A DNA stretch of 64,000 bases. It comes from an uncultured Bacilli bacterium (GTDB lineage Bacteria > Bacillota_I > Bacilli_A > RF39 > UBA660). The stretch covers positions 22,680 to 86,679 of the forward strand of contig CAKOOV010000002.1 of the NCBI GenBank assembly GCA_934098435.1, given 5' to 3'. A model generated the notes under the pieces. That model ran no database searches and was not told the DNA's origin. It saw only the letters and a program-made list of their open reading frames with translations. The position numbers were made by a program, and so were the translations under genes. Positions 34,240 to 43,107 of this stretch are shown here, piece after piece (positions within the stretch are counted from its first letter, which is position 1; the number at the start of each line of letters is the position of its first letter).

Positions 34240-34452
34240 TTATTTTTTATCTTTATAATCAAACACTTCTTTAATATCTTTGTTCTTATCAGAAGTATTA
34301 TTCTTATTCATTTTAATATTACTATAAATAATAAGACTAAGCATTACCACAAGTATAATAGGTAATAACCATATCATAAACTTAACCGCAAGTATTGATA
34401 ATATAATAGCAATAATAATATAAATAACTTCTTTAATTTTTTCTTTATTCAT
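34240..34452 (-). CDS. possible small membrane protein in the unusually long grpE-dnaK spacer
   Basis: 70-aa ORF with one TM helix; weak RBS. Confidence 0.3.
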   Translation of the reverse strand: MNKEKIKEVIYIIIAIILSILAVKFMIWLLPIILVVMLSLIIYSNIKMNKNNTSDKNKDIKEVFDYKDKK

Positions 34453-34453
34453 A

Positions 34454-35041
34454 TTATTCACTTACCCTTACCATAGCAGTTCTAAGTACTTTGTCTTTAT
34501 ACATATAGCCTTTCTGAAGAACTTCTGTAACAATACCAGGTAAAACACCTTCTATATTATCAACAGCTATAGCCTCATGATAAGCAGGATCAAATGGTTT
34601 ATTTAACGGATCCATCTCTTTAACATCAAACTTAGCAAGCAAATCCTTAATTTGTTTATACATAAGTTTGAATCCAAGAAGAAACTTAGAAACCTCATCA
34701 TCCAAATTATCATCATCCATATTAATAGCTCTTTCAAAATTATCTAATATTGGAAGAAAACCTTTAAGTATATCTTCTTCAGCATATTTAATAATTCTTG
34801 AAGTCTCTTCATCCTTTCTTCTTTTATAATTAACAAGTTCGGCTTGACTTCTCAAAAGAGCATCTTCTAATTTCTTAATTTTATCAAGATTATTATCTTC
34901 TATTTTTTCATCACATGAACATTTCTCATCACAATTACATTCCTCATCGCAATTACATTCATCATTACATGAACATTTACATTCCTCTTTTTTTAGCTCT
35001 TCATTTTTCTTATTTTTATGTTTTTTATCCTTATTCTCCAT
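34454..35041 (-). CDS. grpE: nucleotide exchange factor GrpE with a Cys-rich tandem-repeat N-terminal extension
   Basis: GrpE C-terminal conserved blocks; N-terminal ECKCSCNDECNCDEECNCDEKCSCDE. Confidence 0.9.
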   Translation of the reverse strand: MENKDKKHKNKKNEELKKEECKCSCNDECNCDEECNCDEKCSCDEKIEDNNLDKIKKLEDALLRSQAELVNYKRRKDEETSRIIKYAEEDILKGFLPILDNFERAINMDDDNLDDEVSKFLLGFKLMYKQIKDLLAKFDVKEMDPLNKPFDPAYHEAIAVDNIEGVLPGIVTEVLQKGYMYKDKVLRTAMVRVSE

Positions 35042-36035: not shown

Positions 36036-36048
36036 AATATCACTTCCT

Positions 36049-36074
36049 TTAGCAATTATTATTTCCATTGCTAA
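36049..36074 (-). promoter_or_regulatory. CIRCE-like operator 2 (TTAGCAATG-N8-AATTGCTAA) between the -10 and the hrcA start
   Basis: Inverted repeat similar to CIRCE consensus TTAGCACTC-N9-GAGTGCTAA. Confidence 0.55.
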
Positions 36075-36094
36075 TATCATTATATTACTATTAC

Positions 36095-36121
36095 TTAGCA
36101 ATGTCAACACTAAATTGCTAA
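36095..36121 (-). promoter_or_regulatory. CIRCE-like operator 1 (27 nt, TTAGCAATG-N9-AATTGCTAA) overlapping a TTGACA -35; with TATAAT 17 nt downstream forms the hrcA promoter
   Basis: 7/9 match per arm to CIRCE consensus; same 27-nt total length. Confidence 0.55.
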
Positions 36122-36139
36122 TTTTTTTTTATTTTTTTC

Positions 36140-36167
36140 AAAAAAAAGCTCAGAATCACTTCTGAAC
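36140..36167 (-). terminator. rho-independent terminator after the second bacteriocin peptide gene
   Basis: Minus RNA GUUCAGAA-GUGA-UUCUGAGC (with a G-U pair) followed by U8. Confidence 0.7.
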
Positions 36168-36176
36168 TTTTTCTAA

Positions 36177-36347
36177 CTATAAATTACACATTTTATCTTC
36201 ATTACTTCTTCTAATATAACTACCAAGTGCCTCCCCAAGCTCATATATAAAACTAACTATTTTATATATAGAATTAAGCATCGTAGCACTAATAACATCA
36301 GTTCCCCCATCTATTTTTAACAATTCATCATTATCTAATTTCTTCAT
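36177..36347 (-). CDS. bacteriocin precursor peptide B (56 aa) with double-glycine leader MKKLDNDELLKIDGG; mature TDVISATMLNSIYKIVSFIYELGEALGSYIRRSNEDKMCNL
   Basis: GGAGG RBS 7 nt upstream; GG leader; GxxxG motif; adjacent to a C39-peptidase ABC transporter; below the ORF-track size cutoff. Confidence 0.7.
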   Translation of the reverse strand: MKKLDNDELLKIDGGTDVISATMLNSIYKIVSFIYELGEALGSYIRRSNEDKMCNL

Positions 36348-36360
36348 ATAATAGCCTCCA

Positions 36361-36501
36361 TTAATTACATTTTTGTGGATTAGAATATCCAGATAAAATA
36401 CCCGTTACAAAAGTAATAACCCCCGCTATTACAGATACTATCAAGACAGTACTAGAGCCACCTTCTATTTTTATAAGTTCATTCTTATTAAGTTCTTTCA
36501 T
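36361..36501 (-). CDS. bacteriocin precursor peptide A (46 aa) with double-glycine leader MKELNKNELIKIEGG; hydrophobic mature SSTVLIVSVIAGVITFVTGILSGYSNPQKCN
   Basis: AGGAGG RBS 5 nt upstream overlapping the stop of the preceding gene; GG leader; GxxxG motifs. Confidence 0.7.
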   Translation of the reverse strand: MKELNKNELIKIEGGSSTVLIVSVIAGVITFVTGILSGYSNPQKCN

Positions 36502-36510
36502 ATAAACCTC

Positions 36511-36939
36511 CTATTTAAACAAATAATCAAATACTCTTTTATCTTCCTTTAACAATTTAAGTTCCAAAATCAAATTAACATACTTATAATTATCAGAAAG
36601 TTCCAATCCTATATCAACAATTACATAAGTATCTACACCATTAGTATAATACTCTTCATTAGTAGAAATAATACTATATTTATAACTATCATTATCAATA
36701 TATAAAACATTACTATTATTAAAATAACCAATATAATTTCTAGGTACATAGACCATTAAATAATATTTATCATCAGAAGAAGATACAATACCATTAACTT
36801 TATAATATGTTTTATAATGAAATAATAATAAAAATATAATTAAAGAAAGTACTATTACAATAATAATCATTATATAAACATATACTATAGGCTTAATATC
36901 TTTATTTAAAATAATTCTACTATCAATACAATTATTCAT
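36511..36939 (-). CDS. 142-aa single-pass membrane protein in the bacteriocin operon (candidate immunity or accessory protein)
   Basis: One TM helix; 8-nt overlap with the ABC transporter gene; RBS of peptide A overlaps its stop. Confidence 0.55.
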   Translation of the reverse strand: MNNCIDSRIILNKDIKPIVYVYIMIIIVIVLSLIIFLLLFHYKTYYKVNGIVSSSDDKYYLMVYVPRNYIGYFNNSNVLYIDNDSYKYSIISTNEEYYTNGVDTYVIVDIGLELSDNYKYVNLILELKLLKEDKRVFDYLFK

Positions 36940-39019
36940 CGCATCTTCTCCTTTCTAAATTAATAACTTCTCCATTAGAAAACCTAATCATTCTATCATA
37001 TAAATCAATATTTTCTTTTCTATGTGATATAACAATAATAGTTTTATCTTTATAATAATAAAATAAATTTTTAAGTATTTTTCTTTCAAGATTAATATCA
37101 ATCTGATTAAACCCTTCATCAATCATAATAACATTACTCTTCTTAAGTAAACTTCTAGCCAAAATAATTCTTTGTCTTTGACCACCAGAAATATTAACAC
37201 CATTTTCCTCAAGCATAAAATTATCTCCCAAAGGATTATCTTTTATAATATCATTCACATAACACATATTAATAACATTTAAATATTCACTTTTATCTAT
37301 ATTTCTACCAAGTAAAATATTATCTCGGATGGTCTTGGTATATAACATTTCATTTTGTGAAATATAGACAATATTACTTCTAATATCATTAAGACTAAAA
37401 TCATTAATATCATAATTGTTTATAAAAATATTATCACGTCCGCAGTCCAAATACCTATAAATAAGTTTTAGTAATGTTGATTTACCACTTCCTGAAGTTC
37501 CAACAATAACAGTCTTTTCTCCATTTCTAATAAAAAAATTAACATTATTCAAAATATTATATTTATTATTATAAGTATAACTTAAATTCTTAACAACAAT
37601 ATCTCCATTAACTACAAGGTCATCCAATTCACCAATATTTTCTACCGAATTATTTAATAAACTATTAACCCTTTTAATAGAACTATTAATATAATGATAC
37701 TCATTCAAAACACCTAAAATATTTTTCCCCGGAGAAATAACATAATTAGCAAATAACATAACAGTAAAATAATCCCCAGTACTCAAACTATCATACATAA
37801 CAAATTTAATACCAAAATAACTAATTATCAAAAGACCAATATCTTCAATCAAAAATCTAATAAATATAATAACATTATTAATTCTTTCCCCATAAAATAA
37901 ATTATTTAAAAAAGAATTATAAACACTATCAAAATCATAAATAACATTATCTTCAATATTAAGTCCTTTAACAGTTTCAAAAGAACTAACATTTTCAATA
38001 ATTAAACCATTAATTTTAGCCATATTCTCCTGTTTTCTTAAAGTAATATTTTTTATAATAGGATTAAATATTAATACTATTAAATAATAAATAAATATAA
38101 TAACCATAAGTATTAAAAATATTTTAATATTAATATTACAAATAATAATACTAGCCACTATAAATAGTAGATTATCAACCAAAAAAATCATAATAAATTT
38201 AGAAATAAAATTCTTAACACTAAACAAATCACTAATACGTGATAATACTTCTGATGTCGTTTTATTTTTATAATACTTATAAGGAAGTAAAATAATTTTA
38301 GTAAAAGCACTAAGTATCATACTAATATCTAACTTTTGGTTCAAATAAATAATCAAATAATTCCTAATAAAACTAGTTACATTTTTAATAATAATCAAAA
38401 TGGAGAATATAATTGTTATAATTAGTAAATTATTAGTATTAGTATCAATTACATTATCAAACACAAATTTAGAATATAAAGATATTAAACAAGATAAAGA
38501 AGTAAATATTATAGACAATATAAAAACAAATAAAATACAATATCTATTATTAATAATAGAACTAAATAATATTTTAGTAATTTCTTTACCACTTTTTAAA
38601 ACTAAAACATTTTCCCTTTTCTCAAATAACATAATATTTCCTGTAAAATTATTAGAAAAATCAAAAATATCCACTTCTATTCTACCCTTAGCAGGATCCA
38701 TAATAAACATCTTATTATCATTTATTTTATAAACAACAACAAAATGAAAATAATTATCTACTTTAATTTGAGCAATAAAAGGCTCATTTAATTCACTAAG
38801 TTTTAAAATATCCGCTACTCTATAACCAATACCAATAAGTCCAATCTTATTAGCGGCCTCTTTAATATTATAAAAATTAGTTCCTTCTTTCGTAGTTTTA
38901 GTTAAATCAATTAATCTATCTAATGATACATCACCTCCATAATAACGAATAATTGATAATAAAGCAGCAGCCCCACAATCCTTACTTCCTTCTTGAAGTA
39001 CAATTAACTTTTGCTTCAT
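36932..39019 (-). CDS. bacteriocin-processing and export ABC transporter with N-terminal C39 peptidase domain (ComA/LcnC/LagD type)
   Basis: C39 motifs QEGSKDCGAAAL and HFVVVY; 6-TM domain; Walker A GTSGSGKST, LSGGQRQR signature; GAGGAGG RBS before MKQKL. Confidence 0.85.
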   Translation of the reverse strand: MKQKLIVLQEGSKDCGAAALLSIIRYYGGDVSLDRLIDLTKTTKEGTNFYNIKEAANKIGLIGIGYRVADILKLSELNEPFIAQIKVDNYFHFVVVYKINDNKMFIMDPAKGRIEVDIFDFSNNFTGNIMLFEKRENVLVLKSGKEITKILFSSIINNRYCILFVFILSIIFTSLSCLISLYSKFVFDNVIDTNTNNLLIITIIFSILIIIKNVTSFIRNYLIIYLNQKLDISMILSAFTKIILLPYKYYKNKTTSEVLSRISDLFSVKNFISKFIMIFLVDNLLFIVASIIICNINIKIFLILMVIIFIYYLIVLIFNPIIKNITLRKQENMAKINGLIIENVSSFETVKGLNIEDNVIYDFDSVYNSFLNNLFYGERINNVIIFIRFLIEDIGLLIISYFGIKFVMYDSLSTGDYFTVMLFANYVISPGKNILGVLNEYHYINSSIKRVNSLLNNSVENIGELDDLVVNGDIVVKNLSYTYNNKYNILNNVNFFIRNGEKTVIVGTSGSGKSTLLKLIYRYLDCGRDNIFINNYDINDFSLNDIRSNIVYISQNEMLYTKTIRDNILLGRNIDKSEYLNVINMCYVNDIIKDNPLGDNFMLEENGVNISGGQRQRIILARSLLKKSNVIMIDEGFNQIDINLERKILKNLFYYYKDKTIIVISHRKENIDLYDRMIRFSNGEVINLERRRCDE

Positions 39020-39181
39020 ATTATACCTCCTCATATATATAAACACCAAAAATTCCTAAAAATTGTAATTTTTACAAAAAAAAAATTAATTTTTTTATAA
39101 TATTTTAATCAAATCATATATTTTTAGTAGTCATATTGATATTTCAAAACAATTTTGATACAATATCTTTGGTGAAAAAAT

Positions 39182-39754
39182 ATGTTAAGTATAAAAAATA
39201 ATAATAAATATGAATACATAATAAAAAATTCCAAATTTATATCCCTACTATTTAAAGTAACAATAAAAGAAGAAGTAAAAGATTATTTAAATAAAGTAAA
39301 AGAAGAATATCCTAATGCTACTCACTATTGCTATGCATACATAATAGATAACGACACCAAATTTTCCGATGATGGAGAACCATCTAAAACAGCAGGATTC
39401 CCCATTCTTACCCAATTAGAAGGAAATAATTTAAATTACGTATTAATAATTGTTGTAAGATATTTTGGCGGTATAAAATTAGGAACAGGTTTGTTAACAA
39501 GAACATATTCAAAAGTAGCTAAAGAAGTAATAACTAAAGATAACATTATAGAACTAACCAAAGGCTATAATATAACCATAATTTTTGAATACGAAAACAT
39601 AAAAAACATAGACTATCTATTAAAAGATAGTCAAATAATAAAAAAAGAATTTCAAGATAATATAATATATAATGCAAATGTTAATGAAGAGACATTTAAT
39701 AAATTACAAAACTATAATATAAAAATAAATAAAATAATATATATAAAAAAATAG
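39182..39754 (+). CDS. YigZ/IMPACT family protein (UPF0029)
   Basis: HYCYAY, SDDGEPSKTAG and RYFGGIKLG motifs. Confidence 0.75.
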   Translation: MLSIKNNNKYEYIIKNSKFISLLFKVTIKEEVKDYLNKVKEEYPNATHYCYAYIIDNDTKFSDDGEPSKTAGFPILTQLEGNNLNYVLIIVVRYFGGIKLGTGLLTRTYSKVAKEVITKDNIIELTKGYNITIIFEYENIKNIDYLLKDSQIIKKEFQDNIIYNANVNEETFNKLQNYNIKINKIIYIKK

Positions 39755-41576: not shown

Positions 41577-41592
41577 AAAGCTATTTTTTAAT
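41564..41592. terminator. bidirectional terminator (AAAAATAGC-TAAAAA-GCTATTTTTT)
   Basis: Stem-loop with A-run and T-run flanks between convergent genes. Confidence 0.6.
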
Positions 41593-43107
41593 TTTACTCT
41601 TTAAAAGTCCAAATATTCTAGCAATCAAATTTCTAGCGGACCCACTAATTGCATATAAAATAAGAGATGTAATTACTATTATTAATATAAATATCAATCC
41701 CAATTTAAGTACTGTCATAATAAAACTAACACTAGTACTTAAAAATAAATTTTCTATAGGTTTAAGTATAACAGCTAATAAAACAAATAAAATTATAGAA
41801 ATAATATAATACTTAAGTACATCAAACATCTTAACATTCTTAAATACTCGTTTAGCCACCAAACTAGATTTAAGAAGAATATTAATAAAGAAAGCAATCA
41901 CAGTACCAATAAGTACTCCATCAATACCATAATACTTAACTAATATAATAGATAAAAATAAATTAACAAATGCACATATAAATATATGTCTTTTATTTTC
42001 CTTAAATAAACCATCTGCATTAATAATAGCTACCAAAGGATAATATAAAATATTTAAAAACAATGTTAAGGTAAATAAAACAATAGTAAAATATCCAAGT
42101 ATATAGTTATCCTTTCCAACCCATACCGATACAAAACCCCTTATACCAACCATAAATGTAATACACATACAAAATCCAACAAGCACAAACAAAGCAAAAA
42201 ACTCTTTATACAAAGGATATACCTTATCTTCTTCTTTCTTAGCAAAAACATTTCCAAATGAATATACCGAAGAGAGTTCAACCCTAGAGGCAATCTCATT
42301 CAAAAATCTTAAAATATAATTATATGACGTATAAATACTAACCATTATAGGACCATTAAATCCCATAAGAAGTAAAGCATCAACATTATTAAGAATTAAA
42401 AAACCAACCTGCGTCCAAGCCAAATCCTTAGTCATTTTAACCATCGAAGTATTCTTTCTATCTATTTCATGAAGTTCCGGATATTTCTTTTTAACAACAA
42501 TTCTATTAATAACCTCCTCTAAAATCTTCATAATAAGAATAACAATAGCAATAGACTCAAGTGTTCTAAACTTAACTGTAACAATTACAATTAAAATATC
42601 ACATAAAAGTTTTACACCATTAAATATAAGCGAATAAACATACTTTTCTTGAGCAGCACTAAGTACCGCCATAAAAGTTTGTCCCTTACCAAAATATGAA
42701 ATCAAATAAGAAGTAGATATAATAAAGAAACAAATAAGTGAAGGCAACATATATCCACTTTCAAAATGATAAAATAAATATAATCCTAGTGTTACTAAGC
42801 AAATAATACCCAATATAATAAAGCCTATTATCCTAAATATTTTTCTAGCGCCACCATAAATAGCATTAATATCATTTTTATTCTTCTCTGCAAAAGGTTT
42901 ATATAAACTATATATAACAGCATCAGAAAAACCAGCTTGTGCCAAAAACACATAAGATATAATCTGATTTATCGTTTGATAATAACCATTACCAACATCT
43001 CCAATATAAGTAATCAGTACATTCATCTTAACAAGACCAACAATACCAATTAAAAGATAAGGCAATATATCACACAGCATATTTAAAAATATTTTTTTAG
43101 TTCTCAT
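41581..43107 (-). CDS. MOP-superfamily polysaccharide biosynthesis/flippase protein (Wzx/SpoVB/MurJ-like)
   Basis: About 14 TM helices; Polysacc_synt-like N-terminal region. Confidence 0.7.
   Translation of the reverse strand: MRTKKIFLNMLCDILPYLLIGIVGLVKMNVLITYIGDVGNGYYQTINQIISYVFLAQAGFSDAVIYSLYKPFAEKNKNDINAIYGGARKIFRIIGFIILGIICLVTLGLYLFYHFESGYMLPSLICFFIISTSYLISYFGKGQTFMAVLSAAQEKYVYSLIFNGVKLLCDILIVIVTVKFRTLESIAIVILIMKILEEVINRIVVKKKYPELHEIDRKNTSMVKMTKDLAWTQVGFLILNNVDALLLMGFNGPIMVSIYTSYNYILRFLNEIASRVELSSVYSFGNVFAKKEEDKVYPLYKEFFALFVLVGFCMCITFMVGIRGFVSVWVGKDNYILGYFTIVLFTLTLFLNILYYPLVAIINADGLFKENKRHIFICAFVNLFLSIILVKYYGIDGVLIGTVIAFFINILLKSSLVAKRVFKNVKMFDVLKYYIISIILFVLLAVILKPIENLFLSTSVSFIMTVLKLGLIFILIIVITSLILYAISGSARNLIARIFGLLKSKIKK

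Follow-up and report, generated by a model that had tools for sequence, protein, structure and literature searches.

Two double-glycine leader peptides and their C39 exporter in uncultured gut Bacilli: a conserved locus resembling two-peptide bacteriocin systems

Introduction

The stretch of DNA analysed here (64,000 nucleotides of contig CAKOOV010000002.1, from an uncultured Bacilli bacterium; hereafter the window) carries, beside the heat-shock gene hrcA, an operon in which two very short genes, coding for peptides A and B, follow the genes of a C39-peptidase ATP-binding cassette (ABC) exporter and of a small membrane protein. An initial annotation had read this operon as a two-peptide, class IIb-like bacteriocin locus, raising the question of whether the two peptides are indeed exported products and, if so, whether they form a weapon or serve the producer itself. 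We conclude that A and B are very probably genuine exported peptides with double-glycine leaders; that they act together as a two-peptide (class IIb-like) bacteriocin is the reading we favour, with moderate confidence.

Bacteriocin-like loci are common in uncultured gut bacteria. Class IIb clusters comprise five genes or more, coding for two precursors, a dedicated immunity protein, a transporter and an accessory protein (PMC6957408). The window operon holds four of these five components.

Results

Organization of the operon

Four close-packed genes on the minus strand form one operon (39019..36133) in a window of 26.6% G+C. Its features are:

39019..36932, minus strand: gene of the C39/ABC exporter, 695 amino acids (aa), ATG at 39019
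36939..36511, minus strand: gene of a 142-aa protein with a single transmembrane (TM) segment
36501..36361, minus strand: peptide A gene, 46 aa, leader plus core
36501..36457, minus strand: peptide A leader, MKELNKNELIKIEGG
36456..36364, minus strand: peptide A core, SSTVLIVSVIAGVITFVTGILSGYSNPQKCN, 31 aa, hydrophobic, grand average of hydropathicity (GRAVY) 0.94, net charge +1
36347..36177, minus strand: peptide B gene, 56 aa, leader plus core
36347..36303, minus strand: peptide B leader, MKKLDNDELLKIDGG
36302..36180, minus strand: peptide B core, TDVISATMLNSIYKIVSFIYELGEALGSYIRRSNEDKMCNL, 41 aa, amphipathic, net charge -1, isoelectric point 4.9
36174..36133, minus strand: intrinsic terminator at the operon end, a 15-bp hairpin (36174..36141) with a 4-nt loop, then a U-run
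39190..39050, minus strand: intergenic region 5' of the ABC gene, with weak sigma-70-like candidates only

The genes are tightly coupled. The 142-aa gene starts (ATG at 36939) inside the end of the ABC gene, with an 8-nt overlap, and the peptide A open reading frame (ORF) starts 9 nt past the stop of the 142-aa gene, behind a ribosome-binding site (RBS) that reads TAGGAGG. Peptide B follows after a gap of 13 nt with GGAGG as its RBS, and one terminator serves both peptide genes. The hairpin of this terminator begins 3 nt past the peptide B stop and folds at -16.2 kcal/mol (z = -5.89; none of 200 shuffled sequences equalled it); it was missed by a consensus scanner and detected by explicit folding. 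For the exporter we retained the ATG at 39019, which has GAGGAGG (39032..39026) 7 nt upstream, and set aside a TTG at 39049 that would open a 705-aa ORF. The promoter candidates 5' of the ABC gene, TTAACA-17-TATTGT (39188..39160) and TTGAAA-16-AAAAAT (39147..39120), were found by consensus only, and such sigma-70 matches are frequent in DNA this AT-rich. ORF reading, direct inspection of the sequence and RNA folding thus agree with the initial annotation on all coordinates, sequences, RBSs, the terminator and the hrcA neighbour, and on the presence of two translationally coupled genes for double-glycine leader peptides downstream of a full C39/ABC exporter.

Leaders, cores and family matches of the two peptides

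Both leaders are 15 residues long and read M(-15), L(-12), E(-8), L(-7), I(-4), G(-2) and G(-1). C39 domains recognise this kind of leader, with hydrophobic residues at -4, -7, -12 and -15, a glutamate at -8 and a final Gly-Gly. When the 64 kb were scanned for the pattern E-[LIVM]-x-x-[LIVMFT]-x-G-G, A and B were the sole ORFs with such a leader. The core of A is a TM-like segment with the C-terminus G-Y-S-N-P-Q-K-C-N, and AlphaFold modelled peptide B as one long helix spanning residues 21-54, the predicted local distance difference test (pLDDT) score exceeding 90 for residues 31-50. Each mature part contains one GxxxG motif, G34-I-L-S-G38 in A and G38-E-A-L-G42 in B, so that the leaders and motifs first reported for the pair can both be read in the sequence. 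A shared C-terminal K-x-C-N with a single cysteine each had also been reported; the single cysteine holds, the common motif does not, A having K-C-N and B K-M-C-N.

These residues are the ones that homologues keep. In an alignment of 25 A-type peptides the leader Gly-Gly, G34, G38, P42 and C45 are invariant, and among 53 B-type sequences G15 (the second leader glycine), G42 and C54 are invariant, with G14 (the first leader glycine), G38, S43, R46 and R47 kept in 90% or more. Exactly one cysteine is present in the core of 25/25 A-type and 43/52 B-type peptides. Since each window peptide has a single cysteine, the only disulfide open to it is an intermolecular one; we know of no interchain disulfide described for class IIb peptides. 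Predicted monoisotopic masses are 3166.70 Da for core A, 4656.33 Da for core B and 7821.01 Da for the heterodimer that such a bond would form.

Profile searches gave a mixed answer on class membership. On TIGR01847, A scored 18.1 bits (cut-off 15.7) and B 15.3 bits, slightly under. Full-length A also passed the cut-off of TIGR03949, the class IIb model of the lactobin A/cerein 7B family (25.2 vs 21.5 bits); its leader alone scored 15.7 bits, the core alone gave no match, and peptide B did not match this model. The TIGR03949 match, and with it the family assignment of A, thus comes mostly from the leader. Among the 25 A-type peptides, 20 match TIGR03949 and 11 match the lactococcin G-beta/enterocin 1071B model (E<0.01), and both window leaders weakly match the model of the EntF induction factor. 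On PF10439 (Bacteriocin_IIc) A and B scored 21.5 and 13.8 bits, both below the gathering threshold of 27.1, and the model was matched at E<0.01 by 8 of the 25 A-type and 6 of the 53 B-type peptides. The class IIb and PF10439 checks proposed with the initial annotation split, full-length A scoring above the cut-off of the former, mostly through its leader, and neither peptide reaching the latter. The core of B belongs to no curated family of Pfam or NCBIfam. Profile searches of the PDB with both peptides returned leader matches only (pre-carnobacteriocin B2 and the PCAT1 substrate CtA) plus noise, and a full-text literature search for the core motifs returned nothing. The locus had been described as unannotated and its mature sequences as unrecognised; the first part needs amending, as NCBI already applies the name 'class IIb bacteriocin, lactobin A/cerein 7B family' to a member of the 90% cluster of A (and 'hypothetical protein' to a relative of B), and the second agrees with our searches, in which the mature sequences of A and B were not demonstrably related to any described bacteriocin.

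The exporter

The exporter has the architecture of an N-terminal C39 peptidase (Pfam Peptidase_C39, 1.5e-33), a six-TM ABC membrane domain (ABC_membrane, 3.2e-36) and a nucleotide-binding domain (ABC_tran, 6.9e-26). It aligns over its full length with PCAT1 (PDB 4ry2, E 4.5e-96) and ComA (PDB 8hf4, E 1.3e-74), all three domains being covered and the catalytic cysteine motif kept; the Q..DCG, HFVVV and DPA motifs expected of an active C39 domain can be read directly. The scores of the exporter on TIGR01193 (374.5 bits, curated cut-off 523.85) and on NF045998, the Mbov_0121 family (314.6 bits, cut-off 500), are both below the curated limits, and for this reason we class it, on sequence grounds, as a divergent member of the peptidase-containing ABC transporter (PCAT) class. 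It differs from PCAT1 and ComA in its apparent partner, which here is a miniature adaptor rather than ComB or none.

A minimal adaptor candidate

This partner is the 142-aa membrane protein. It matches no Pfam model, those of HlyD included. Its AlphaFold model, built from a 57-sequence alignment (mean pLDDT 81), shows a TM helix (residues 16-39) followed by a beta-barrel, and a Foldseek search placed BesA near the top of the matches, at an E-value of 0.025 that lends weak support. The predicted fold, the 8-nt overlap with the ABC gene and the invariant place of the gene between transporter and peptides make the protein a candidate for a minimal membrane-anchored adaptor that would work like the HlyD-type proteins LcnD and ComB. 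Membership of the HlyD/membrane-fusion family was not found by sequence. Compared with BesA, MacA, EmrA, Spr0693 and LcnD/ComB, the protein has only about 100 extracytoplasmic residues and neither an alpha-hairpin nor a lipoyl domain.

The initial annotation had stated that no HlyD-type accessory protein was present and had left the 142-aa protein as an immunity or accessory candidate. The adaptor reading contradicts the first statement, although by sequence the protein is still no HlyD member; of the two candidate roles, the fold, overlap and synteny favour the accessory one, and the same fold, overlap and fixed position ahead of the peptides make an immunity role unlikely.

A distant relative may exist in mycoplasmas. 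Thirty-six of the 57 members of the 142-aa family match NF045999 (MAG1140) at E<=0.1 (best 2.8e-6) over the TM segment and the first half of the barrel, and the window protein itself scores 15.4 bits (E 0.016), below the 35-bit cut-off, which points to a remote relationship and not to membership. The MAG1140 model is numbered next to that of the Mbov_0121 transporter (NF045998) and both are mycoplasma families; the exporter and the 142-aa protein of the window thus share a remote sequence relation with this pair, each with a score below the curated cut-off. A literature search on Mbov_0121 and MAG1140 returned nothing relevant.

Distribution and genomic position

Both peptide sequences are present unaltered on 17-24 public contigs, and gut-metagenome contigs with 90% relatives number up to about 1000, some of them longer than 1 Mb (the longest about 1.1-1.4 Mb). 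In GTDB, 'uncultured Tenericutes bacterium UMGS610' is the nearest species representative, with a 142-aa protein 96% identical to that of the window, and another 19, under labels such as Bacilli, Bacillales, Tenericutes and 'Firmicutes bacterium CAG:321', carry the family at 44-59% identity. Whatever their label, 'Tenericutes' included, these relatives are walled spore-formers, as indicated by the neighbouring sporulation genes SpoIIP and Cse60. A cassette of the hrcA type with an accessory protein 59% identical is filed in a 'Paludibacteraceae bacterium' metagenome-assembled genome (L017, CAVCHK010000067.1); this contig, with 27% G+C and Bacilli-type neighbours, is probably mis-binned.

An accessory gene followed by an A-type and a B-type peptide is found in all 25 loci of the 142-aa family. 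More widely, an A-type gene lies directly 5' of B in 61 of 62 loci, with B identity down to about 40%, and an exhaustive profile search with peptide B yielded 138 representative clusters at the 50% identity level (E<=1e-3); none of the 10 clusters that we looked up bears a name. All hosts of the B family are uncultured low-GC Firmicutes, mostly from the gut, and some reach very high abundance in human gut metagenomes. Low-GC Firmicutes at a much greater distance (L035, L042) repeat the order ABC gene, single-TM protein of 121-137 aa, A, B; one locus (L041) has a 137-aa multi-TM protein 5' of the transporter and no mini-adaptor. Alignment by hhalign of the 142-aa family with the 121-aa accessory protein of L035 was not significant (probability 3.9%), so that homology of the accessory proteins across the wider family is argued from position and architecture. 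The initial annotation had named loss of conservation or frameshifts in relatives as grounds for abandoning its reading; the peptides are conserved and unframeshifted in every related genome examined. Two apparent A-B fusions were discarded, P0173 (L034) as an artefact of a gene call running through a TAG stop, and the tandem protein P0137, for which we rejected the fusion reading.

The genomic site is stable too. Among 37 distinct loci with enough sequence, about 28 have rpsU downstream of B at a distance of up to 2.2 kb, 350 nt or less in most cases, and rpsU-yqeY directly follows the cassette in most lineages (among L008-L033, L035-L037 and L046-L060). The window lineage is an exception, its cassette lying between yigZ and hrcA, and tblastn searches of the window with rpsU, with the 360-aa membrane protein found upstream in L008/L011 and with a PolC fragment gave no match. 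We read the locus as a module that is passed on vertically in a broad clade of low-GC, uncultured Bacilli of the gut. It is not a strain-specific island, and we rejected an origin from a mobile element, given the housekeeping flanks and the conserved site.

Selection and rearrangement

Between the window and a related species (L001), flanking genes are 78-91% identical, with ratios of nonsynonymous to synonymous substitution rates (dN/dS) of 0.10-0.20, and the cassette genes are 57-69% identical, with dN/dS of 0.31-0.62. Identity within peptide B is 40% for the leader and 90% for residues 27-56; in these residues the proportions of changed nonsynonymous and synonymous sites (pN and pS) are 0.054 and 0.43. 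This pattern indicates that the peptide genes are functional, with purifying selection on the cores and faster-evolving leaders, and an evolution faster than that of housekeeping genes would suit an accessory competitive trait.

Several independent assemblies of close relatives show a natural rearrangement or deletion variant of the locus, in which the C-terminal half of the 142-aa gene continues in frame an N-terminal piece of PolC (L039:3964-4347 and L040:865-1248; also P0091-P0096 and P0101). This variant lies 3' of NifU/SUF genes without an ABC gene upstream, and A, B and hrcA are intact. The existence of strains that have no upstream ABC gene suggests that the system is dispensable.

A candidate immunity gene in distant relatives

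Twelve distant loci (L038, L043-L048, L051, L052, L055, L060 and L061; e.g. L046:5144-5293 and L044:5144-5293) carry a third ORF of 45-59 aa that overlaps the stop codon of B. Its product has no double-glycine leader; it combines an N-terminal TM helix with a C-terminal F-N-L-G-x-Y-x-G-T-x-x-R. Its C-terminus aligns with the B core around GxxxG (hhalign probability 80%, E 1.3e-5), and its hidden Markov model (HMM) cross-matches B peptides at E of about 1e-3. The third ORF may thus encode an immunity protein that mimics peptide B. Neither the window nor any locus of the 142-aa family contains it.

Neighbouring genes

The cassette has hrcA, yigZ and trpS as neighbours. Just past the terminator stands the hrcA promoter, a perfect TTGACA-17-TATAAT (36107..36079), followed by hrcA-grpE-dnaK. 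Two palindromes of the form TTAGCA-N14/15-TGCTAA, resembling the controlling inverted repeat of chaperone expression (CIRCE), lie at 36049..36074 and 36095..36121 and are the only two in the window, against 0.02 expected by chance; the one overlapping the -35 box is TTAGCAAT-N11-ATTGCTAA and the one past the -10 box is TTAGCAAT-N10-ATTGCTAA. The hrcA start is likely the GTG at 36036 rather than that of the longer listed ORF from 36110.

Further observations concern the same region. GrpE (34454..35041, minus strand) has an unusual cysteine-rich N-terminal extension, CKCSCNDECNCDEECNCDEKCSCDEK, with 10 cysteines in 26 residues, which resembles a metal-binding repeat; its orthologues in related contigs have no recorded Pfam hit. 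Between grpE and dnaK lies a 73-aa ORF with two predicted TM segments (34240..34461, minus strand), which every related contig (L001-L007, L065-L069) keeps at a length of 70 aa. A polytopic membrane protein of 508 aa (41581..43107, minus strand) adjoins a CmpB-like gene and trpS; it is conserved and has no recorded Pfam hit in any related contig.

Discussion

Proposed mechanism

The full-length homology of the exporter to PCAT1 and ComA leads us to propose that its C39 domain would cut each precursor after the Gly-Gly (Gly15) while the transporter exports the cores. The 142-aa protein, in view of its predicted fold, gene overlap and conserved synteny, would aid this export as a stripped-down counterpart of the HlyD/LcnD/ComB-type accessory proteins. 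Once outside, the hydrophobic core A and the amphipathic helix of core B might pair through their GxxxG motifs in the membrane of a target cell, and A-Cys45 and B-Cys54 may form an interpeptide disulfide.

Comparison with known two-peptide bacteriocins

Class IIb loci such as those of lactococcin G (lagABCD), enterocin 1071, plantaricins EF and JK and carnobacteriocin XY share with the window an adjacent pair of peptide genes with double-glycine leaders, one GxxxG in each core, helical amphipathic or hydrophobic cores, and a C39-ABC exporter with an accessory protein (PMC6957408); A-type peptides are moreover weakly similar to the lactobin A/cerein 7B and lactococcin G-beta/enterocin 1071B models. 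The loci also differ. The accessory protein has 142 aa here, against about 450 aa for the HlyD-family protein; the window locus has neither an immunity gene nor three-component regulation; each of its peptides has an invariant C-terminal cysteine, and the core of B falls outside the curated models. The window locus is chromosomal, syntenic and vertically inherited, whereas class IIb loci are strain-variable. The pair is also roughly neutral, whereas known class IIb peptides are cationic.

Gallocin A of Streptococcus gallolyticus, an atypical two-peptide bacteriocin with disulfides, offers another comparison: it too is a two-peptide, double-glycine leader, gut-associated system, and its cysteines are reported to be important for activity (PMC10100652). 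The gallocin disulfides differ in being intramolecular, one in each peptide, whereas the window peptides have a single cysteine each and no sequence similarity to gallocin.

Is the pair a bacteriocin?

The class IIb interpretation of the initial annotation draws support from gene content, leaders, GxxxG motifs and exporter; the missing immunity gene counts against it, and the family match of A comes mostly from the leader. Linked immunity is a defining feature of class IIb systems and is lacking here, and for this reason we do not file the locus as a plain class IIb member.

Several observations weigh against a toxin role. There is no ORF between B and the terminator and hence no linked immunity gene in the operon, and the HMM of the immunity-like third gene found only peptide B itself in the 64 kb. 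The core of B is acidic in the window and the A-B pair roughly neutral as a whole (B peptides in the wider family are cationic, with a median net charge of +3). No regulator is linked to the locus, in line with the earlier remark that a quorum-sensing kinase or regulator is absent. The cores match no characterised bacteriocin in the PDB, the literature or family models. Finally, a fixed chromosomal site across lineages whose B peptides are about 40% identical fits a core function better than the usual variable bacteriocin island, and, where sequence reaches, the cassette is present in all 21 contigs that have the exact YigZ of the window.

On immunity, the literature leaves room for a small protein. 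Class IIb immunity proteins go down to 42-55 residues with one TM segment (CbnZ, 42 aa; BrcI, 53 aa), and the immunity mechanism of two-peptide bacteriocins 'remains a mystery' (PMC6957408). The third ORF of the distant cassettes matches CbnZ and BrcI in size and TM segment, and the presence of a gene that may mimic B speaks for a toxin role in the family at large. Inside the window we considered the 73-aa ORF of the heat-shock operon (34240..34461) for the immunity role and rejected it, since it does not resemble the immunity-like family and belongs to that operon, though it remains a candidate.

The alternative that survives best, although we consider it unlikely, is that the exported pair has a conserved function for the producer itself, as a heterodimeric signal or a membrane-active physiological factor, and is not a weapon. 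It would account for the lack of an immunity gene, for vertical inheritance over long times at the rpsU site in many lineages and for the presence of the cassette in every contig of the strain group of the window, for retention in small genomes (the longest contigs being about 1.1-1.4 Mb), for the near-neutral to acidic pair in the window clade and for the very strong conservation of the C-terminal half of B; the curation of the remote exporter and accessory relatives as mycoplasma families Mbov_0121 and MAG1140 also fits. Against it, none of the loci examined has a linked receptor gene, be it a sensor kinase, a response regulator or another; a 31-residue TM-like core with GxxxG is unlike known Gram-positive pheromones, and the cassette evolves two to four times faster than its flanks. 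The immunity-like third gene of distant family members and the strains with a rearranged locus and no upstream transporter likewise argue against it.

A bolder version of this alternative, which we hold to be quite unlikely, would make the cassette an ancient export system, inherited vertically, for a Cys-Cys-linked heterodimer; it would be a core trait of a clade of gut Bacilli with small genomes and evolutionarily continuous with the Mbov_0121/MAG1140 pair. A physiological or communicative role of the system would then explain why no immunity gene is needed, and the 142-aa protein would be the smallest known membrane-fusion-type adaptor of an ABC exporter in a single-membrane cell.

Multi-bacteriocin loci sharing one C39 transporter are common, and both leaders weakly match the EntF model, so A and B might instead be two independent one-peptide bacteriocins, or a toxin and its inducer, which share the exporter without forming an obligate pair. 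The A-B order fixed in 61/62 loci, the one GxxxG and one near-C-terminal cysteine kept in each peptide, and the lack of a two-component system on which an inducer could act make this very improbable. That the small ORFs are not real genes, or that the locus is decaying, could be supposed from short ORFs in very AT-rich DNA and from one strain variant with a broken accessory gene, but is hardly conceivable in view of the strong RBSs, the conservation of more than 60 loci with synonymous-biased change, the intact transporter with its catalytic cysteine and the dedicated terminator, and is effectively refuted by the conservation.

Implications

If A and B are active as a two-peptide bacteriocin, they would represent a previously uncharacterised family of 138 clusters at 50% identity, and the finding would be relevant to gut competition and to the discovery of peptides. 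The invariant single cysteine of each peptide predicts an interchain disulfide. The family would also provide a natural experiment on two-peptide immunity, with members that have a B-mimicking immunity candidate to be set against members that have no immunity gene. The 142-aa adaptor would define the smallest functional accessory unit of an ABC exporter and ties the locus to unstudied mycoplasma genes, and the stable place of the cassette next to rpsU over such divergence is unusual for an exported-peptide module.

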